27,678 bases of DNA from a virus (IMGVR_UViG_3300044825_000459:1-27678); one strand, 5' to 3'. Positions 3,286 to 23,868 are shown, numbered from the stretch's first letter. Notes: generated by a model from the letters alone, not told the origin. Numbers and translations: made by a program.

Positions 3286-3516
3286 TTACCCGCTCGCTCG
3301 CTCTGCCTTCTCCGCTTTGACTTCTTCTACTGCTCCGGCAATCGCTATTAACCAATCCGCTGTACCGGCTGGCAATTCGTCTACTTGCTGCGGTGTCCAA
3401 CCGAATCGGTCAGCCATCGTGTAGTAGTACCAATGCTCATCGGGGTAGTCAAAGTTTTCGCTCCGACTGCCTCCGTTGAGAACCCATTTTAGCCGTTCGA
3501 GTTGCCGGTATCCGCT
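3286..3516 (-). CDS. Tail assembly chaperone, -1 frameshift extension (gpT-like part of a G-T fusion, about 186 aa total)
   Basis: The -1 frame is open from the slippery site to TAA at 3286-3288. It reads SGYRQLERLKWVLNGG...MADRFGWTPQQVDELPAGTADWLIAIA..., with a gpT-like FGWTPxxVxxLP motif. Not in the ORF track. Confidence 0.8.
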   Translation of the reverse strand, partial: SGYRQLERLKWVLNGGSRSENFDYPDEHWYYYTMADRFGWTPQQVDELPAGTADWLIAIAGAVEEVKAEKAERASG

Positions 3517-3845
3517 TTTGGGTCTGCCTCGTTCGTGTCATTTTTTGACAATGATGGGAACAGAGCCTTTTGCGCTTCCTGCGTTGCCTCGACCAATGCG
3601 TCGTAGTCCTTGATTTCTAATTCGTCTAGCGAACTTAGTTTTACGGACGGGATAATTAAGTCGAAATCCCAAGCTTCTACTAGCATCGCAACAACTGCGT
3701 CGCCGAGTGCTAATGCTTTTCCTAGGTCGCCTTCTTCTTTGTCTCCTGCGCGCATTACTGCCTTGCGGTCTTTTACTCGCAATAGCGCCGGGTCTTTTAG
3801 CGTTACTTTCGCGCCTGACGGAAGAGTGATTTCTGAACTTGCCAT
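3489..3845 (-). CDS. Tail assembly chaperone (gpG-like)
   Basis: 118 aa acidic protein after the tail tube gene, ending ...EADPK. AGGAGG RBS at 3853-3858. Confidence 0.82.
   Translation of the reverse strand: MASSEITLPSGAKVTLKDPALLRVKDRKAVMRAGDKEEGDLGKALALGDAVVAMLVEAWDFDLIIPSVKLSSLDELEIKDYDALVEATQEAQKALFPSLSKNDTNEADPKADTGNSNG
3516..3522 (-). other. Programmed -1 ribosomal frameshift slippery heptamer C CCA AAA
   Basis: X XXY YYZ pattern, in phase with the chaperone codons GAC CCA AAA GCG. Confidence 0.8.
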
Positions 3846-10702: not shown

Positions 10703-11005
10703 TTACGCGTTGTTGAACTGGCCGGTCATTAGAACGCCTACGATTGCTGTCTGCCCTGACTTGCATACCCCGTATAGTGCGTCGCCTGAGTAGAGGTCAA
10801 TGGTGAACTTGTTTGCTATGCCGGTGGTAGTGAACTTTGTTAGCACATACCCGTTTGTGACGGAGACGTTTGAAGCTCCCACATGACAGTCGTTTGTACC
10901 GTCAATGTTGTTGATGAAGACGGTCATCTTGCCCTGTCGCCCGGTGTTACGCACAATCTCTGCGGGTACATCGGTCAACTGTTGCGAGTAACTCTTTAGC
11001 GCCAT
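10703..11005 (-). CDS. Hypothetical head-region protein (100 aa, beta-rich)
   Basis: GAGGAG RBS, tightly packed between its neighbours. Confidence 0.7.
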   Translation of the reverse strand: MALKSYSQQLTDVPAEIVRNTGRQGKMTVFINNIDGTNDCHVGASNVSVTNGYVLTKFTTTGIANKFTIDLYSGDALYGVCKSGQTAIVGVLMTGQFNNA

Positions 11006-11127
11006 TAGGACTCCTCTGATTGTTCAGTAATTGTACCCTGTGTATCTAGTCTTTCGTCTGCCTGTTCCGGTATGCGGGTTATCCACACAATGCCTTCGCC
11101 GTCGTCTACGAATCTGCTCTTGCTCAT
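11005..11127 (-). CDS. 40-aa peptide, candidate immunity/inhibitor of the MuF-ART
   Basis: MSKSRFVDDGEGIVWITRIPEQADERLDTQGTITEQSEES. ATGA overlap with the ART stop and TAATG overlap with the next gene. Not in the ORF track. The function is inferred. Confidence 0.7.
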   Translation of the reverse strand: MSKSRFVDDGEGIVWITRIPEQADERLDTQGTITEQSEES

Positions 11128-12578
11128 TGAACCACCTTTACCGTAATTACCCTGACGAGTCTTCCTCCGAGCTCTTCTTCGCGTTTAGATACTATCTCAA
11201 ACTTTGTGCCAGCGGGTAGAAGCCACTCGCTCTCTTTTAAAGTCCTACCCGAGTCTATTACCTTTTCAATCGCTAATCCTTTTGTGCCGGCTGGATTGAT
11301 AATCTGTAATTGGGTAGTGCGTCCAAATTGTAATGCTTTTGACATGCTAGCCGTTGTAGACACAAATCCATTGTCTTGGAATACGCTGCCCGGTGCTGAT
11401 TCCCACACTTCGTCTGCGAACTTTCCTATTACGCCTCGGAGCGTTATGAAGCTCTTTTCTATTGGGTCTGTCGATAGGATTGTGTTTTGTATTCTTGCAA
11501 TTCTTTCGTCGAAGATTTGCTTGACGCGTGATTGTTCTACTGCGTCTCCGAGAGGTTTCCAATACTCATCGCCGGTTCGCAAATAGTCGTTTATGCGCTT
11601 GTACCCGCTGCCCTTGTAGAAGTTTAGAGCGTCGTATTCTTCTCGCGTTAATACTCCTAGTTTCGCGTCTTGGGCTTGTCCAATCATTCCTAGTCTTCTG
11701 CTTGTAAGTAATTCGATAACTTCCGGTTTTGTCGGTTTTAATGTTGGTGTGATGATAGTCATTCCGTCGGTTGGTTCCGCGTAGAAGCTTTCGTCCAGTA
11801 CTGGTAGTAATGCGCAGCGGCAGTTCGGGTGCGCCGGCGGTTGCGTATGTCCGCTCTTGAACGGTTGCCCTACCTGTACAACTTGCCCCTCGTTAGGCGC
11901 GCAGATGTCACAAGGCATTGCGCCGCTCCACTCCATCTTTTCGACTTCGTACTTTTGGTAATTCTGTATTGTCGCCATGCTCATTGCGCGGTTTTGCTCC
12001 GTGATTGCGATGGTTAGCGCTCGCGCCGGGTCGCCTATCTTTGCCGCTATGACCTTTGCTGCTCTGCCCGGTGAGAATCCGGCCGCTATTGAGTCGGATA
12101 GTGCTGTTCCGATTCTGTCGTAGCCGACCTTCGCTATGGCCTTGCTTACTATGCCCGCGTTATCGAGTATTTCCTTAAATGCTCCTGTTGGTCTGAACAA
12201 CAATGCCGCTGCCCTGTTGCCCGGCTTCCAGTTCGCCCAGTCTATGTACTCATCTGCCTTTGTGAGCGCTGCTTTGTCCGAGGTCTTTTCCGCTCTGTTG
12301 ATTGCCTCTGCGCTTGCGTCTAATCCAAGGAGGAATCCATCTGTGTAAATCTTGGTGAGCGCTGCTATTACCGGCTCCGGGTTAATCTTGACATTCATCA
12401 TCGCCCATGCTCGCGCGCGTGCGCGGTCTTGCGCGTTGTTATCTGTTACGAACGGTTGAGTATCTTGGTACGCCTCGTAGATTGCTTGCGCGTTGATACT
12501 CGCTCGTAATGCTGCGCGCATTGTGACCGAATTCTTTGCCGCTATGCGCACATCTGCTTTGTGTGCGCCCCAATTCAT
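11124..12578 (-). CDS. MuF (SPP1 gp7-like) minor head protein fused to a C-terminal VIP2/C3-like mono-ADP-ribosyltransferase
   Basis: MuF motifs: RALTIAITE, W...CDIC, PPAHPNCRC. ART motifs: ALNFYKGSGYKRINDYLR, LRG, GFVSTT, ESEWLLP (R-S-ExE). Confidence 0.9.
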   Translation of the reverse strand: MNWGAHKADVRIAAKNSVTMRAALRASINAQAIYEAYQDTQPFVTDNNAQDRARARAWAMMNVKINPEPVIAALTKIYTDGFLLGLDASAEAINRAEKTSDKAALTKADEYIDWANWKPGNRAAALLFRPTGAFKEILDNAGIVSKAIAKVGYDRIGTALSDSIAAGFSPGRAAKVIAAKIGDPARALTIAITEQNRAMSMATIQNYQKYEVEKMEWSGAMPCDICAPNEGQVVQVGQPFKSGHTQPPAHPNCRCALLPVLDESFYAEPTDGMTIITPTLKPTKPEVIELLTSRRLGMIGQAQDAKLGVLTREEYDALNFYKGSGYKRINDYLRTGDEYWKPLGDAVEQSRVKQIFDERIARIQNTILSTDPIEKSFITLRGVIGKFADEVWESAPGSVFQDNGFVSTTASMSKALQFGRTTQLQIINPAGTKGLAIEKVIDSGRTLKESEWLLPAGTKFEIVSKREEELGGRLVRVITVKVVQ

Positions 12579-14413
12579 GCTAGGTAGGCCTTCGCCAATG
12601 ACCTTGCCGTATCGAGGTCGCCTTCTACTGCGCAGCGGTTAAGTGCTTCGCCGACAATCGGGTCAATCATCTTGAACTCGAACTCTCGTTTGCGGGTTCC
12701 TTTTGCTGCCCACTTCATGAAGGCCTTGACTTCCGCTGCTACTTCTTCCGCCGCTGCTTGCGCTGGTACTTCTTCCGCCGGGATTACTTCGCTTTCTTCT
12801 ATCTCTGTTCCGTCTTGGTCAAGCTGCGTAGCACTTGTTGTTGTTGCCGCGTTAATCATTCCGTCAGGTGAGAATAGGTAGACGCCGCTTCCGCTTACGA
12901 GGATTGGCATGTCTGCTTGCGGTGTATCTAGTAATGGTAATCCGAGTTCGCTGCGGCGCTCGTTTACTGTCTTGCCCGCGCTTGTTATTTCAATCTGCGC
13001 TTTGCGTGCGCTCGCTTCGTCGTCTTGACGCTTGCTTGGTAATAAGCGGAACTCTAGTTCGCGTGGCATACCTAGATAAGCGTAGGAGAGGTTGGTTATT
13101 ACCTTGTTGAGCCAGTTTACTAATGGCTGAACTCCGAGTGCCTCTGCGCTGCCGGCCTTTCCTTCTTCGAATCCTGCTCCGCCTAATCCGCCTTTAGGGT
13201 TGTAACCAATCTCTGTTGGTTGTACTCCGAAGTGACCGCAGATGGAAGCGATAAGGAATTCGTCGAGTGTGTCCTTGAACTTCTCGCCGTATGCGTCGTT
13301 TGTGATTGGCGTAATGCCCGTTGGTAGTAGGCGTGCGCGCTTGCGCTGCTCTGTCTGTCCGGATAAATCGTCATTGAGAATGTTTTCCCAAGCTCTTAGC
13401 AAATCCGGGTTTGTTCCCCATGTTGCGTCGGTGCTGAACATCAGTTCCGGTAGAACTCCGTCTGTGTACTCCGCGCGAATCCATTGTTGTCTGCGTAGGT
13501 AAATGTCCGCTAGTGGTAGCGCTCGCTCAACCGGGCTGAATCCGTACACGCTTGTTGTTCGGCGGTTGCGTACTAGGTAAGCAAGGTCATCTGATGTGAA
13601 CTCGCCATCTGCCTTCGGGTCGTCATTGTTTGCGCTGAACTCTGCGCGTGGGAAGCCGTACAAGATTTGCTGGTATGCCGCTTGCGGTGGCATTGGTCGC
13701 ATTCCTCTGTCGTCTAGCATCGGCTTAATCGTTGCGCCGTCTAGAATCTGTAGGCCGTATAACTCTCCGCCTACTGTCTTTTGTGGCCAGATTGCGAGCG
13801 CGTCAATTACGAGGATTTCCTCTAGCGCGATGTTCAACCAATCTGTAAATGTCAGGCCGTTTGCTTTGTCCGGGTTTTCCCAGAATGTGCGTATGCGGTT
13901 GATTTCGTCGTTTAATTCTTCTCGCGCTTGAATCATTGCGCGTACATGGTCTCCTCCGTTTTCGGCCGCAATCTTTTCAGACGCGTCGTTACCGAGAACG
14001 ATGTCCCATTCTAGACCTGTTGTCTTTCCCTTAATTACTTCAATGCACCGGCGAAGAATGTCAATCTGCTCTGCCGCTGCTCTTAATGTTTTGAACGGTA
14101 CGTTGCGTGTTTCCGTGATGTTGATGTTTTGTGCAACTTGGTACTCGTACTTGCGCGGTTCCGGTCTTCCTGTTACTGGATTGACCGGGTTGATTGCGCC
14201 CGGTGTGATTGGGATACCCGGACCGAACGGTACTCCTGCTAGTAATGGGTTTCGTGGGAGCGGTGTTGTTGTTCCATAGTTTTGTCCGATTGCGCCCGGT
14301 ACTGCGTTTCGCATTTGCTGTTCCGTCATTGTTACTGCGCCCGCTGGAAGGTTTGGAGCCTTCTCAATGTCTGTGCCGGCTATTGCTTTTGCGATACGGT
14401 CGCGTAGACCCAT
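12575..14413 (-). CDS. Portal protein
   Basis: 612 aa after TerL. Motifs LYGLQILDGATIKP, YGFSPVE, ICGHFGVQPTEIG and TVNERRSELGL. Confidence 0.92.
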   Translation of the reverse strand: MGLRDRIAKAIAGTDIEKAPNLPAGAVTMTEQQMRNAVPGAIGQNYGTTTPLPRNPLLAGVPFGPGIPITPGAINPVNPVTGRPEPRKYEYQVAQNINITETRNVPFKTLRAAAEQIDILRRCIEVIKGKTTGLEWDIVLGNDASEKIAAENGGDHVRAMIQAREELNDEINRIRTFWENPDKANGLTFTDWLNIALEEILVIDALAIWPQKTVGGELYGLQILDGATIKPMLDDRGMRPMPPQAAYQQILYGFPRAEFSANNDDPKADGEFTSDDLAYLVRNRRTTSVYGFSPVERALPLADIYLRRQQWIRAEYTDGVLPELMFSTDATWGTNPDLLRAWENILNDDLSGQTEQRKRARLLPTGITPITNDAYGEKFKDTLDEFLIASICGHFGVQPTEIGYNPKGGLGGAGFEEGKAGSAEALGVQPLVNWLNKVITNLSYAYLGMPRELEFRLLPSKRQDDEASARKAQIEITSAGKTVNERRSELGLPLLDTPQADMPILVSGSGVYLFSPDGMINAATTTSATQLDQDGTEIEESEVIPAEEVPAQAAAEEVAAEVKAFMKWAAKGTRKREFEFKMIDPIVGEALNRCAVEGDLDTARSLAKAYLA

Positions 14414-15805: not shown

Positions 15806-16157
15806 AGACTGTTACCTCCGCTGTAATCTTGGTTGGAGCGTCTAGCCCCAGTAGTTTGATTTCCTTCTCCGCTATCCGTAGCGCTGTGTCAATCGCCCGT
15901 AGGTCGCCTTCCTTTGCTCGCGGCCACACCGCCATGTGCATACGCTCAAATCTGTCTAGAACCGTATCCCGGTACTCCTCTAGGCTTGGTCGTATCATGC
16001 GCTCCGCTGCGCGCTGGTACATCTTGTATGCCCCGCTTGCATTCTTGAACCCGACTTCGCGTGCAATCTTCTCCCAAGTTACTCCTGCTCTGCGTAACTC
16101 GATAATCTGTAATTCTTTGTCGAGTACCGCTGGAGGGGGCGTTTTTTTCCTGCTCAT
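15687..16157 (-). CDS. terS: Terminase small subunit (N-terminal HTH)
   Basis: Motifs ELRRAGVTWEKIAREVGF, GDLRAID and KLLGLDAPTK. Immediately upstream of and overlapping terL. Confidence 0.78.
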   Translation of the reverse strand: MSRKKTPPPAVLDKELQIIELRRAGVTWEKIAREVGFKNASGAYKMYQRAAERMIRPSLEEYRDTVLDRFERMHMAVWPRAKEGDLRAIDTALRIAEKEIKLLGLDAPTKITAEVTVYEGQQLIEHTARIIDLIRQSRGAPGNLGSGVSERRAITD

Positions 16158-16705
16158 GCGTTTCCTTTTCCGTAGGATAAATAGTCTCCCATAATTTGAG
16201 TAATCTCGCTAGGTGGCAATTCTCCCGGTAACTCTATTGCTTCGTACAGCGCTGCTAGGTTCCTGTGCTTCGTTGCTCTGCCTCTTGCCCATGATGGGTT
16301 TTGCGTCTTCCCTGTTTCGGCGCTTCTTGCTTCTCTTCTTGAAGCTGCTACATCTACATCTATGTCTAGGTAGAACAGGTGCAGTTTGCCATGGCTCTTT
16401 GCTAGGTCGAAGAATGTCCGGCTCGCTAGTCTGTCGCCTTCTCCGTAAATGGTTGCGCCCTCTTGCTCTGCGTACTTGTAGAACTCCGGCATTTGTGTAA
16501 TTACGGTGTTGCCGAGGGTATCTGTTCCGCTGAAATGCAATCTGTCCCAGCCGAGAGAGAGAACCTTCCCTAGATTGGGTGACTCGTACTCTTGGTACTT
16601 GAACGGTTTGTCATACATGTTTACCTTCGCCCAGTCCTTTTGAAGCTCTTTTGTCAGAGTTGTTTTGCCGCTTCCCGGCTCTCCAATAAGGTAAATCGTG
16701 TCCAA
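16154..16705 (-). CDS. P-loop nucleotide-kinase-fold protein, candidate modified-base (5hmU) DNA kinase
   Basis: N-terminal YLIGEPGSGKTT, FSGTDTL, YGEGDRL and a lid-like RREAR. Adjacent to the TET/JBP gene. Confidence 0.75.
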   Translation of the reverse strand: MDTIYLIGEPGSGKTTLTKELQKDWAKVNMYDKPFKYQEYESPNLGKVLSLGWDRLHFSGTDTLGNTVITQMPEFYKYAEQEGATIYGEGDRLASRTFFDLAKSHGKLHLFYLDIDVDVAASRREARSAETGKTQNPSWARGRATKHRNLAALYEAIELPGELPPSEITQIMGDYLSYGKGNA

Positions 16706-16720
16706 TGCCCTCCCCCTATC

Positions 16721-17572
16721 TTATTCCGGGTTTTTCAGGTCGTTTGCCATCTTCTCTTCTCGCTGCGTGCGCTTTTCTGCGCCCTTTGCTGTCTCTACTG
16801 CGTAAGTAAAGCAATCTTTCATGCCCTTTAGCGCGTAGTACACGATTGAGTAGCGGTATGCGTCCTTCGCTGTTGCGTGCATTGGTGTTACTCCGTGAAG
16901 GTACTTGTATCCCGGGAAGAACAGCACCCAGCCGTCGCGGCAAGCGCAGGTTAGGTCGTACTCCGGGAAGTTTAGGTATCCGCCTCTCATGTCGCGTCGT
17001 ACTACCGGCATTGCGCTCCATGTTGCGTAATTGAATCCGTCGCGGTGGTATGGCAGGGTTGAGGCTTTGTTTACTACGCCGCTTGTCCATAATGCGTCGT
17101 CTGTCATCTTCCACTCGTTGTCAATGCCGCTGGTCGCTAGAGTCTCTGCGTCTTGCGCGAACAGGTGCGGTGCAAACTCTTTGAACATGTCGCCGAACTT
17201 TGTGGCGAACGCTACAAGGACTGCATGCTCTTCCGGTTGCTCGTTTGCCAATGTTGTTGGTCGGCAACTCTCTCTGCGCTGGAAGACCTTGCGTGGAGCC
17301 ATGCCGAATGTCCGGGATTGGTTTTCCATTCCGGTTCCTGCGCGCTTGGTAGTGCCGTAACGGATTGCCTTTACAGACGCTCGCAACAGATTGACTTCGT
17401 CTTCCATCGGCATGTAAGCGAGGATTGGTTCCTCTGTCTCTGCGTCAATGAAGATAGCCGCTTCTCGGCAATTCGCTTCTAAGTCAGGCACCGTCGTTCC
17501 CACAAGCTCTGTCGCTTGTTCTACGCTCATTACACGGGATACTCGGATTACTGGTAACTCAGATAGTTTCAT
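16721..17572 (-). CDS. TET/JBP-family 2OG-Fe(II) dioxygenase (DNA pyrimidine hydroxylase)
   Basis: HxD in PYHRDGFN, GGYLNFPEY, distal His in LHGVTP and the 2OG-binding Arg in RYSIVYY. Confidence 0.85.
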   Translation of the reverse strand: MKLSELPVIRVSRVMSVEQATELVGTTVPDLEANCREAAIFIDAETEEPILAYMPMEDEVNLLRASVKAIRYGTTKRAGTGMENQSRTFGMAPRKVFQRRESCRPTTLANEQPEEHAVLVAFATKFGDMFKEFAPHLFAQDAETLATSGIDNEWKMTDDALWTSGVVNKASTLPYHRDGFNYATWSAMPVVRRDMRGGYLNFPEYDLTCACRDGWVLFFPGYKYLHGVTPMHATAKDAYRYSIVYYALKGMKDCFTYAVETAKGAEKRTQREEKMANDLKNPE

Positions 17573-17717
17573 TCTGTTCCTTTTCCGCTCTATGTCGTTC
17601 CTTGTAGGCTTCGTATGCGATTTTCAGTAATTCTTCGTCGTACATTTGTTCAGGTCTGATTGATGCCCAGAACTTCTTTTCTCTGTATTCGTCCATGTCA
17701 ATCACATTGTCGTTCAT
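17559..17717 (-). CDS. Small hypothetical protein (52 aa)
   Basis: MNDNVIDMDEYREKKFWASIRPEQ... ATGA overlap upstream, and it overlaps the TET start downstream. Not in the ORF track. Confidence 0.65.
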   Translation of the reverse strand: MNDNVIDMDEYREKKFWASIRPEQMYDEELLKIAYEAYKERHRAEKEQNETI

Positions 17718-18349
17718 TGTGGAGCCTTTTCGCCGTAGTTTTCCTCCAGCAATTTTACCAGCGCGTCCGAGTTGCTCATGGCTCCGGTCTTCGCTCGGTA
17801 TCTGCCTAGTTGCTCAATCGTCCAGATGTACAGCGTGTTTTCCAATTCCACCATGAAGACCTTCGTGTCTACCGCCTTGTATCTGTCTGCTAGGCCTTCA
17901 ATCTGCGAGGCTATCTCTGCTTGTCCGGTCTTTGCTAGGCCGTCAATTACTGTCGGTGTTTTCTCTTCCTCTATGCGCGCCAGTACATCGTCGAACTCGT
18001 CATCGCCGTATCCCGTATGTTCTAGGTCGTTGAGTCGCTCTAGTAATTCTAGTAACGCGTTATTGTCGTACTCGCTGAGGTCGGTTGCTCTGTTGTCAAT
18101 AAGAACAATCTTTGCTGCGGTCTCTGCGTCTACTTCAATGAATGTCGCTTCAATCTCTGTCCAACCTAATTCTTTTGCCGCTGCGTAAGTGTGATTGCCT
18201 ACAAGGATTTCGTTAGTCGCCTTGTTAACCGTAATCGGCTTGTACTGTCCGTACTCGCTTAATGACTCCGCGATTAGTTTGATGTTTCCCCTGCGCGGGT
18301 TATTTGGATACTGATGTAACTGGTCTAATGGAACCTTCTCTGCGTTCAT
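17714..18349 (-). CDS. ParB/Srx N-terminal domain protein, paralog 2
   Basis: YPNNPRRG, YGQYKPITVN, ILVGNHT, KIVLIDN. Confidence 0.88.
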   Translation of the reverse strand: MNAEKVPLDQLHQYPNNPRRGNIKLIAESLSEYGQYKPITVNKATNEILVGNHTYAAAKELGWTEIEATFIEVDAETAAKIVLIDNRATDLSEYDNNALLELLERLNDLEHTGYGDDEFDDVLARIEEEKTPTVIDGLAKTGQAEIASQIEGLADRYKAVDTKVFMVELENTLYIWTIEQLGRYRAKTGAMSNSDALVKLLEENYGEKAPQ

Positions 18350-18957
18350 TCCGGTGCGCCTTCCCCTGAAATCTTTTCTATTAAGCGTATAAGTGCATTT
18401 GTGCTGCTTGGTAAGTCGTTTTCATTTCGGAATTGTTCTAGTTTTTCTGAAACCCACATGTAAGTTGGTTTGTTCATGTCGAACATGATAATTCTTGATG
18501 TGCGCTGATTGAGTGTCTCTTGCCAATCCTTTAGTGACTTGCCCATTACCGTATTGCGTAGTGCCGGTTCCGGTGTGTCGTACAGGCTTTGAAGCTCTTT
18601 CAGGTCTTTGTCTGTGTAACCGGTTGCGCTGAGGTCGCCGATTGAATCTAGTAAGCCGAGTAGCGTTGCGTCGTCGTATCCTCCTGCGTCGCTGGTCTTA
18701 TTGTCCATTAACACAATCTTTGCTGCGGTGTTTTCGTCTGCGTCAATGTATACAGCCTTGATTGTTGCCCAACCTAGTTTGCGTGCTGCTTGCGCTGTGT
18801 GATTACCTGCGAGGATTTCGTTTGTTCGCTTGTTGATTGTTATTGGTTTGTACTGGCCGTATGTCTCTAGGCTCTTTGCAATTAAATTGATGTCGCCTTT
18901 GCGCGGGTTATTCGGGTATGGCTTTAATGTTATTAGCGCTACTTCCTTGATTTCCAT
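18346..18957 (-). CDS. ParB/Srx N-terminal domain protein, paralog 1
   Basis: YPNNPRKG, YGQYKPITIN, ILAGNHT, KIVLMDN. Confidence 0.88.
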   Translation of the reverse strand: MEIKEVALITLKPYPNNPRKGDINLIAKSLETYGQYKPITINKRTNEILAGNHTAQAARKLGWATIKAVYIDADENTAAKIVLMDNKTSDAGGYDDATLLGLLDSIGDLSATGYTDKDLKELQSLYDTPEPALRNTVMGKSLKDWQETLNQRTSRIIMFDMNKPTYMWVSEKLEQFRNENDLPSSTNALIRLIEKISGEGAPE

Positions 18958-22399: not shown

Positions 22400-22695
22400 T
22401 ATGCACCTGCTTTCGCAAAGTGAGTGTCTTTTGTATCTGCTGACCAGAAGTTTTTAACACAGTTGTTACCGAGGCGTATAACTTTGCCCTGCTCTGATGT
22501 TAATGGTAGGAGTGTGTCTGTCATCCACTCCCAACGAGCGATGTAACCTGTGTTTTCTGCCATTCCTTTGCCGCAATGTTCGCAAGTTGTTGTTACTCCG
22601 TCGCGCTCTGCTTTGCGTGTGTTTTTATCCCAGTCATCGTGTGCGCCCATTCCGCCGCAACGAATTACTGTTTCGTTTGCTGTTGTTGCTGTCAT
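22399..22695 (-). CDS. Hypothetical protein with zinc-binding motif (98 aa)
   Basis: Start re-called to MTATT behind the repeated leader. CEHCGK...GNNC. Confidence 0.7.
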   Translation of the reverse strand: MTATTANETVIRCGGMGAHDDWDKNTRKAERDGVTTTCEHCGKGMAENTGYIARWEWMTDTLLPLTSEQGKVIRLGNNCVKNFWSADTKDTHFAKAGA

Positions 22696-22802
22696 TTGCT
22701 TTCCTAACTGTTGGGAGACCTTGCTGGTCTCTGTTGTGATTAATTTAACTCCTCGAATTACGGTCTGTAAAGATGGCCGCCGGCGTGTCGGAAAGTTTTT
22801 TA
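22696..22802 (-). promoter_or_regulatory. Early promoter/leader repeat, copy A
   Basis: Minus strand: TAAAAAACTTTC...TTTACA-18 nt-TAAATT...CAACAGAGACC-AGCAA-GGTCTCCCAA...GTTAGGA..GCAAATG. Confidence 0.7.
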
Positions 22803-22907
22803 CGCCTCGCAATCGTGGCCGTACGCGTACTCCTCCCGGGTCATTTTCTTGTAGCACTCGCCGCAGGTGATGTGGGTGAGATTGTGGCCTCCGACGACGA
22901 TACTCAC
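22800..22907 (-). CDS. Small zinc-finger-like protein (35 aa)
   Basis: GTG overlaps the previous TGA. CGEC...GHDCEA. Confidence 0.6.
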   Translation of the reverse strand: MSIVVGGHNLTHITCGECYKKMTREEYAYGHDCEA

Positions 22908-23167
22908 TCTGTTACCGCCACTCCGTTTACTACGCGCCACCCGTTGCTGTGCTGGTATCCGCAGTTGAAGCAAATGCCTACGCGTACATCGTATGTCTGC
23001 GCGCAGAAGCACCCGGCCTCGCGTACTGTCGGTTCGCCTCGGTGGAAGTCGTAATGCAGCATCATGAGATACGACTCCGGGAAGCTCTTTCCGCAGTCAA
23101 AGCATTGGTATTTGTCCTTCTTTGTTTTCCACACAATGCCGGCTCCGTCGTCTACAAATCTGCTCAT
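22904..23167 (-). CDS. Zinc-finger protein with N-terminal SRFVDDGAGIVW motif
   Basis: C2H2-like YQCFDCGKSF...LMMLHYDFH plus a second CFC...CFNC site. GGAGG RBS. Confidence 0.75.
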   Translation of the reverse strand: MSRFVDDGAGIVWKTKKDKYQCFDCGKSFPESYLMMLHYDFHRGEPTVREAGCFCAQTYDVRVGICFNCGYQHSNGWRVVNGVAVTE

Positions 23168-23340: not shown

Positions 23341-23771
23341 TAGATTGCCTCCGCCATTAGGCAGCGCATTTCTTCTTCCGCTGCGTCGATTGCTACTTGC
23401 ATGTTCTCCGGGTTTGATACATACCCTGCGCGGTAGCCGTTTTTGCTTGTCATGCGGCCATGCCACAATTCGTACTGACCTTGGATTTTGTAAAGTTTGT
23501 AACCACCGATTTTCTTGACTGGCACGATTGTTGCTCCGGCGTTGATGAGCGCTTGTAGGAGGCCAACTGTTTGGTATTTGGTTACAAGCTTGCAGAACAA
23601 TTCGTGTCCTGTTTCCTGCTCTTCGTTTTCGTCGAAGTAATTTAATCCTGCGCCGTCTGTGTAGAAGGTGTAACGCTGCTTCTTGTACTTGACGCTGATT
23701 GCGTTGTATGCATCTGTCTCTGAAAGTCCGAGTGCAATAATGTTTTTTTCGTACTTTGTCGCTGTTGTCAT
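23340..23771 (-). CDS. Hypothetical protein (143 aa)
   Basis: First gene behind leader copy B. Confidence 0.72.
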   Translation of the reverse strand: MTTATKYEKNIIALGLSETDAYNAISVKYKKQRYTFYTDGAGLNYFDENEEQETGHELFCKLVTKYQTVGLLQALINAGATIVPVKKIGGYKLYKIQGQYELWHGRMTSKNGYRAGYVSNPENMQVAIDAAEEEMRCLMAEAI

Positions 23772-23868
23772 TTGCCTGTCCTAACGCTTGGGAGACGCTG
23801 TCGGTCTCTGTTGCATTAATTGTGCCCCCGAATGGCACTTTTGTCTCCCGATTTCCGAAAGTTTTTTA
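23772..23868 (-). promoter_or_regulatory. Early promoter/leader repeat, copy B
   Basis: Minus strand: TAAAAAACTTTC...CACAATTAAT.CAACAGAGAC-CGACAGC-GTCTCCCAA...GTTAGGA...GCAAATG. Confidence 0.68.

Follow-up and report, generated by a model that had tools for sequence, protein, structure and literature searches.

The window analyzed here, the whole of a single 27.7-kb virus record from a lake bacteriophage family (IMGVR_UViG_3300044825_000459:1-27678; 27,678 nt), carries on its minus strand a gene for a 484-aa protein that joins a MuF minor head protein to a C-terminal VIP2-like ADP-ribosyltransferase (ART) domain of the R-S-ExE type, followed at once by a 40-aa open reading frame (ORF), the late copy of a short peptide core that recurs at the start of a distant, putatively early zinc-finger gene. 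At the level of sequence, the analysis establishes the ATGA coupling of the small ORF to the ART gene, the intact catalytic residues of the ART, the exchange of ART and core together, and the grafting of the core onto several carrier genes. The interpretation we favor, with slightly better than even confidence, is that the late core blocks the ART and that the early graft acts alike on ARTs injected from virions. Its two parts stand differently: the 13-residue core of the coupled ORF probably serves as a minimal immunity peptide that blocks the ART by binding to it, and the chances that the graft on the zinc-finger gene limits virion-injected ARTs of the same subtype early in infection seem to us about evenly balanced.

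The MuF-ART gene (11124..12578, minus strand) was identified from Pfam matches and a fold model. It comprises a MuF (Phage_Mu_F) domain at residues 155-257 (11808..12116; Pfam E 1.8e-13) and, in the exchangeable part of the protein, an ART domain (ADPrib_exo_Tox) at residues 310-472 (11163..11651; Pfam E 1.7e-14). The catalytic residues R381, S407 (in STT), and E449 and E451 of the ExE motif are invariant across 61 aligned homologs, and from this motif arginine would be the residue that the enzyme modifies. The predicted ART model (pLDDT 93.3) has a VIP2/C3-like fold; its best Foldseek matches are CDTa, Plx2A, and VIP2 (E ~1e-13 to 1e-12; TM 0.69-0.76 among the top 10), and the ART profile matches VIP2 at E 1.5e-22 as well as structures 6DRE and 6DRH.

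The 40-aa ORF (11005..11127, minus strand) starts MSKSRFVDDGEGIVW and overlaps the stop codon of the MuF-ART gene through ATGA. An earlier reading made from the DNA alone (the sequence-only reading) had proposed this unannotated ORF and its coupling, and its coordinates, length, and start all check. The peptide includes a core, RFVDDGEGIVW (11083..11115), and a tail (11011..11046). It belongs to no family in Pfam, PHROG, or NCBIfam, has no usable match in the ESM Atlas, and its profile has no match in the Protein Data Bank below E 0.9.

To place this pair among related loci, we assembled a set of 160 MuF loci on viral and metagenome contigs, taking the best 80 from each of two lots of confirmed matches (549 and 373). 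With loci gathered earlier and the window itself added, a MuF gene was present in 167; 12 extended past the contig, which left 111 distinct C-termini: 31 VIP2-like ARTs, 52 other extensions, and 28 short forms. The VIP2-like ARTs are followed in 29 of 31 cases by an ORF of 20-85 aa that starts within -14 to +20 of the stop codon, nearly always with a 4- or 8-base overlap; the two exceptions are a 208-aa ORF that itself begins with the core and a locus at a contig end. Small ORFs also stand behind 42 of the 52 other extensions, but they are of type-specific kinds without the core. Behind short MuFs a small ORF was scored only four times (out of 28), and in two of these cases it is a piece of the following large gene, truncated where the contig stops. 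In the ART-linked ORFs the core is N-terminal, with the approximate consensus [RKN]-F-x(4-7)-G-[IL]-x-hydrophobic, and a profile built on it scores at most 4.5 bits behind all 80 non-VIP2 MuF ends. The motif search that the sequence-only reading had outlined accordingly places the core with VIP2-like ARTs and not with other MuF ends. Since the profile was trained on the positives, it was retested holding out whole ART clusters, and 20 of the 31 peptides then still exceed the 95th percentile of 79 negatives. The C-terminal 60 residues of 126 proteins showed no in-frame fusion of ART and peptide. The same MuF bears at least four other types of extension (for example at loci L086, L074, L053, and L047), each with its own type of 45-85-aa ORF; among these uncharacterized extensions, one ends in Y-x-I-L-N-R and another has a zincin-like E-x-Y-A-E motif.

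The core is also found outside this set. Cultured relatives were retrieved with the whole MuF-ART protein and two other ARTs as queries (tblastn of annotated phages with the window ART alone gave no match at 1e-6), and eight annotated phage ART loci were examined. The core is present in gp81 of Gordonia phage Forza, at the N-terminus of orf14 of Gordonia phage GMA6, and in an unannotated ORF of Bacillus phage S4-3; these and locus L386 all lie outside the training set and score above all 79 negatives. The core scores of LazerLemon gp9 and of an ORF of Manatee Spring are weak. A profile search of 1.84 billion representative sequences returned 20 matches: 17 small ORFs of the kind found at these loci and three that were spurious (TPR, repeat, and cadherin proteins). 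Among the 17, one 78-aa ORF (P0128) bears two cores of different ART subtypes in tandem ahead of the shared tail, and another (P0143) has a different immunity type on the same tail. Of 401 Actinomycetota genomes, six have a matching ART, with no downstream ORF above 7 bits against the core profile. In a bacterial genome (G353), locus L357 (854-1929) holds a stand-alone ART frame with a GTGA overlap to a 202-aa ORF whose start resembles the core and which also has CxxC and SseB-like domains; the likeness to the core is by eye (profile score -1.7 bits) and the ORF was not counted as a carrier. Some larger head-region ORFs have the core joined to their N-terminus, as in L062 (11188-11814; 208 aa), whose terminal domain resembles the C-terminal extensions of L137, L141, and L164, and in GMA6 orf14 (L227, from 1609 onward; 1009 aa).

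Similarity of the core follows similarity of the ART (rho = 0.80, partial 0.79; 29 rows, of which related ones are not independent) and not that of MuF (rho = 0.25, same rows); none of 1000 permutations reached the partial value. ART and MuF similarity are themselves barely correlated (rho = 0.20), and the tail tracks the backbone (rho = 0.55 with MuF) rather than the ART. Since the core tracks the ART and the tail tracks MuF, the exchanged cassette consists of ART plus core, with its junction just behind the core. This co-variation shows linkage, as read from sequence, and is not proof of binding.

The sequence-only reading had also suggested selection on the peptide. In eight orthologs picked by position and ART subtype, pS is 0.56 and pN 0.12 over the 12 core codons (pN/pS = 0.215), which bears this out: the core is under purifying selection at the protein level. 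A previous value of 0.22 came from a motif-picked set and was set aside as circular. The best-kept positions of the core are the Phe and the G-I-x-hydrophobic residues. A likeness of DDGxGI to the G1 box of GHKL ATPases was rejected, as most cores have no DxGxG.

The tail behaves differently, with a pS of 0.21 against 0.56 in the core of the same orthologs. Its DNA (11011-11046) is conserved throughout the clade regardless of the cassette, beyond coding need, and holds a TACAAT hexamer and the GAGGAG ribosome site of the next gene; given the low pS and these two elements, the tail looks constrained as DNA. The TACAAT sits 24 nt upstream of the next gene's start and is a possible late promoter, although a sigma-70 scan found no full promoter in 11011-11046. 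Conservation of the tail as DNA, in common with other cassette types, is what one would expect if the small ORF were a nonfunctional by-product of cassette exchange beside a conserved promoter or ribosome site. Against this stand the constraint on the core at the protein level, the overlapping start kept in 29 of 31 loci, and the recurrence of the core behind ARTs in Gordonia and Bacillus phage records, and we regard the by-product explanation as very improbable.

The second copy of the core in the window, RFVDDGAGIVW (23129..23161, minus strand), forms the N-terminus of an 87-aa Cys/His-rich, zinc-finger-like protein (22904..23167, minus strand) that starts MSRFVDDGAGIVW. Positions 11083-11119 and 23129-23165 agree at 33 of 37 nt; two of the four differences are synonymous (TTC/TTT and GGC/GGA), and the other two fall in one codon (GAA/GCC, Glu/Ala). 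This repeat, which the sequence-only reading had pointed out, was confirmed in each of these respects, and the self-match scores 54.5 bits (E 6e-8) against a mean best score of 30.1 and a maximum of 37.4 in 100 trinucleotide shuffles. Judged by its position, the gene would be expressed early. The zinc-finger Pfam matches of the protein fall below curated cut-offs, the ESM Atlas gives generic C2H2-like clusters only, and a single-chain model (mean pLDDT 51, residues 1-15 below 50) is unusable.

Orthologs of the zinc-finger gene in the outgroup have no such start: 18 distinct sequences are without the motif and begin directly before the first CxxC. Where the MuF gene of motif-less zinc-finger records is resolved, it is short and ART-less in eight out of eight. 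Within the clade of the window, the spacer between motif and zinc finger differs in length and the core is intact. Overall, the motif occurs on five different carriers: the zinc-finger protein; a 65-aa protein without CxxC (G001 and G005, extended in G026); a 45-50-aa CxxC protein (G004, G025, G027, and G028); a zinc ribbon in G031, whose GTG start was read by eye (no profile score at this locus exceeds 7.8 bits); and a fifth carrier in the distant L170, which has an ART subtype of its own and a second copy of matching type, with a core like that of its own late peptide. Several of the copies share one slot, upstream of the same small membrane gene, and G001 has two copies in two slots.

Among 80 loci centered on the RusA gene, 7 of 10 in the clade have a match of at least 10 bits and none of 70 in the outgroup does, many outgroup loci being short on that side. 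Two of the three in-clade loci without a match end before the slot, and the third is G031. All eight records that have both a second copy and a MuF gene on the same contig encode a VIP2-like ART. The complete genomes G025 and G026 came to light only through the DNA pattern of the early motif and were typed afterward; both have MuF-ART. In 20 non-VIP2 records (nine of them near complete), there is no second copy above 9 bits.

The sequence-only reading had entertained two further roles for the motif, that its Arg is a sacrificial decoy for the enzyme or that the zinc finger redirects the ART. R-S-ExE ARTs are indeed described as modifying Arg in the passages available to us (PMC11699363, PMC8120803), Arg occurs in every early copy seen and in 20 of the 28 distinct late cores as we anchored them, and four of the five carriers have CxxC motifs. 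The remaining eight late cores, however, have Lys (four) or Asn (four) at this position, Lys also replaces Arg in the Forza and S4-3 peptides, and it is the hydrophobic positions, F and G-I-x-hydrophobic, that are kept best. The five carriers are interchangeable and unlike in sequence, and one has no CxxC. Both ideas are weakened by these findings, and together we consider them quite improbable.

A number of observations weigh against the interpretation that we favor. As regards the late copy, the retest missed 11 of 31 held-out peptides (one cluster of seven, three singletons, and one other), so there may be more than one peptide family; the ARTs of Enterococcus AE4_2, Mycobacterium Turbido, and the T4-like CC31 are followed by unrelated ORFs; and co-variation of core and ART would also be expected from plain linkage of adjoining sequences. 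As regards the early copy, seven of the eight second-copy records fall in one clade of the portal tree (100/100 support), whose MuF loci are all VIP2-ART, as is every MuF locus with a portal identity of at least 84%. One all-ART clade plus L170 amounts to no more than two independent origins. If near-complete genomes are selected by MuF alone, a second copy is present in two of four with ART vs. none of nine others (P ~ 0.08, Fisher's test, by hand). The ART genomes G011 and G015 and the scanned parts of G057, all outside the clade, have no second copy, nor have five annotated phage records a convincing one (the best match, 10.9 bits, is on the opposite strand in Forza). A search by tail pattern for a clade member with a non-ART MuF found none: its 12 stretches are two new contigs, both with ART, and 10 known ART contigs. 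P0143 suggests that complete clade genomes with a non-ART MuF exist.

Early copies do not always match the ART beside which they occur. When each phage's own late peptide is ranked among 33 as a match to its early copy, it comes first in the window, third in L170, sixth in G025, and seventh in G003 (scored with the L003 peptide, the cores being identical as far as the G003 contig reaches). It comes only 12th in G031, 13th in G026, 16th in G004, and 31st in G005; the subtype that the early copies of these four resemble most is that of the window. In the early core of one close relative, Ser takes the place of Ile. The four mismatched copies, together with the concentration of cases in one clade, the shared slot upstream of the same membrane gene, and the decayed-looking variants GAGSVW and TESSEGIVF, would suit an explanation in which the late peptide is a cognate immunity protein and the second copy a passenger: the start and 13 codons would have been duplicated once in the clade ancestor and would have outlasted changes of carrier because recombination among the small genes retains gene starts. 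In L170, however, the copy arose independently and is of another subtype, G001 has a copy in each of two slots, the core stays intact while spacer length varies, and synonymous codons vary while R-F and G-I persist (in a motif-picked set, so partly circular). We judge the passenger explanation rather unlikely.

The pairing of a MuF toxin with a small immunity ORF is itself of an already known kind. The MuF polymorphic toxins described previously likewise have a MuF N-terminus, a variable C-terminal effector, and a position in the head module, with a small ORF behind toxin-bearing but not short MuFs (PMC5576092). ARTs make up 14% of the 191 MuF toxins reported there; in the available text these belong to temperate phages only, mostly of Firmicutes, whereas the phages considered here are WhiB-bearing freshwater phages with no integrase among the scanned ORFs, and that text describes no conserved motif or distant second copy (PMC5576092). 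MuF proteins enter heads, and their effectors are thought to be injected, according to the sections consulted of two reports (PMC5576092, PMC9503650). The partly available account of Bxa, a MuF-ART from a Bacteroides stercoris prophage, states that it kills bacteria by modifying Arg and is blocked by its small neighbor Bsi, a nonenzymatic protein that binds and neutralizes it (PMC11699363). This arrangement of a MuF-fused ART and an adjacent small ORF resembles that of the window. Bsi is much larger, with no fewer than 92 residues (among which K89 and E92 matter), compared with ~13 for the core and 40 for the whole ORF; its locus includes an ADP-ribosyl hydrolase, of which we found no Pfam or PHROG match among the 39 window ORFs, and no distant second copy is mentioned in that part of the report (PMC11699363).

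Other R-S-ExE ARTs are blocked by a short element. The excerpts available describe residues 27-33 of Tri1 and 80-86 of TriX as inserted in the active site of the enzyme (PMC11606950, PMC8120803). Tre1/Tri1 and TreX/TriX are in this respect similar to what we propose; the Tri1 and TriX elements, however, are helices inside folded proteins of secretion-system loci, whereas here the element, for which blocking is proposed only, lies in a free-standing micro-ORF. T4 Alt, another ART of the Alt/VIP2 family, travels in the phage head, according to the consulted parts of the literature, and enters the cell along with the DNA, where it modifies host proteins (PMC9503650, PMC8120803). It has no MuF fusion, and the ORF after alt in the T4-like CC31 is without the core. 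For the core family, its graft onto early genes, and the stacking of cores, we found no description in the open literature; the tables of PMC5576092 may list some of the ORFs.

We propose the following mechanism. By analogy with MuF and Bxa/Bsi systems, the MuF-ART would be packaged and its ART would modify bacterial Arg, and the late peptide would protect the cell while heads are built. Translational coupling could supply about one peptide per ART during head assembly, and the core might bind in the ART cleft through its Phe and G-I-x-hydrophobic residues. The short ART inhibitor proposed in the sequence-only reading has comparative support from co-occurrence, subtype tracking, selection, and graft. 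The second copy, as its distribution suggests, would be made before the head genes and quench the injected ART, on a carrier domain that is likely a passive, stabilizing vehicle. In the window phage, the early copy matches the phage's own late peptide and could serve as a timer. The sequence-only reading had envisaged a two-stage system directed at the phage's own ART, and this fits the window but not the wider set, with four of eight copies mismatched, three ART genomes without a copy, and seven of eight cases in one clade.

In relatives with swapped ART cassettes, the early copy might instead act as orphan immunity against co-infecting kin that keep the window's subtype. In bacterial polymorphic toxin systems, orphan immunity modules are kept without the matching toxin and are sometimes stacked; those are whole proteins encoded in bacterial chromosomes, whereas here a linear motif is fused to phage genes. 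In sequence terms only, G004, G005, G026, G031, and P0128 each hold a module of immunity type apart from the matching subtype.

An inhibitor copy outside the late operon would imply an ART already at work in the newly infected cell, which favors injection and a bacterial target and disfavors a quite different reading, in which the ART hits eukaryotic grazers as a Trojan horse. The peptide would then help or activate the ART, as a chaperone or in packaging, and not inhibit it. The Trojan-horse role has been proposed for VIP2-like ARTs of freshwater phages (PMC6802176, as far as the available text goes); the best matches of the predicted fold are actin-modifying toxins, and cores fused to large head-region ORFs (L060/L062 and GMA6 orf14) would suit co-packaging. 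On the other hand, identity to eukaryote-targeting toxins is only 17%-23%, no binding or pore component was seen among the window ORFs in Pfam and PHROG scans, and an activator on an early gene would be of little use if the target were outside the host cell. Moreover, the same slot hosts many extension types, each with its own small ORF, a layout that the accessible part of the MuF survey treats as antibacterial toxin-immunity (PMC5576092). We therefore give the grazer reading a small chance only.

More broadly, a linear motif of ~13 residues could be a complete, portable inhibitor of VIP2/Alt-type ARTs, found behind phage ARTs across host phyla, which freshwater actinophages graft onto early genes and stack by specificity, both timing their own injected ART and disarming those of competing kin in a phage-phage toxin-immunity warfare within one cell. 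We offer this generalization tentatively and would sooner expect parts of it to fail. If true, the inhibitor would be far smaller than the published ART immunity proteins compared here and cheap to synthesize, it would be testable in the cultured phages Forza and GMA6, and it would account for a class of small "hypothetical" ORFs behind phage ARTs. What MuF effectors do in the phage cycle is still described as unknown in the consulted portion of a 2025 meeting report (PMC12254948).

Every recognized gene of the window, a partial genome, is on the minus strand. In Pfam and PHROG scans, these genes include an exonuclease, WhiB, a replication initiator, RusA, a cluster of small genes, SLT, HNH, and SSB, as well as ParB-like, oxygenase, terminase, portal, MuF, and head and tail genes. 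The portal gene (12575..14413, minus strand; Pfam and PHROG) lies directly upstream of MuF-ART in the head module. Downstream of the 40-aa ORF and outside the ART cassette is a 100-aa gene (10703..11005, minus strand); it is also present behind short MuFs, and in relatives it is replaced by a 93-aa gene or absent, regardless of the MuF type. WhiB is a marker of actinophages in the available text of PMC6802176 and points to a host in Actinomycetota. The GTDB matches are phage contigs binned in metagenome-assembled genomes of several phyla and name no host. No integrase was found by Pfam and PHROG among the 39 ORFs of the partial window genome or in the complete relative G025, for which the scan covered 19 of 58 listed ORFs; from their position, we took its other 39 for orthologs of window genes or frames on the opposite strand.

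A repeated leader, a candidate early promoter or leader, lies upstream of the small-gene cassette with the zinc-finger gene (23757..23821, minus strand) and again just downstream of it (22681..22745, minus strand). The two copies match at 54.5 bits (80% over 66 nt), contain a GAGAC...GTCTC inverted element, and precede two small-gene cassettes; the repeat is likely a recombination point. Ahead of the terminase, 16154-18957 encodes a P-loop nucleotide kinase, a Tet/JBP-like oxygenase, and a pair of ParB-like paralogs whose DNA is 71% identical over 220 nt, and is likely a DNA-modification cluster; an amino acid:DNA transferase is present in G025. Ahead of the tape measure region, a 118-aa ORF followed by a 43-aa ORF (3286-3845) is likely a tail assembly chaperone pair, and the start of the 43-aa ORF is the main background match of the core profile, at 7-9 bits.

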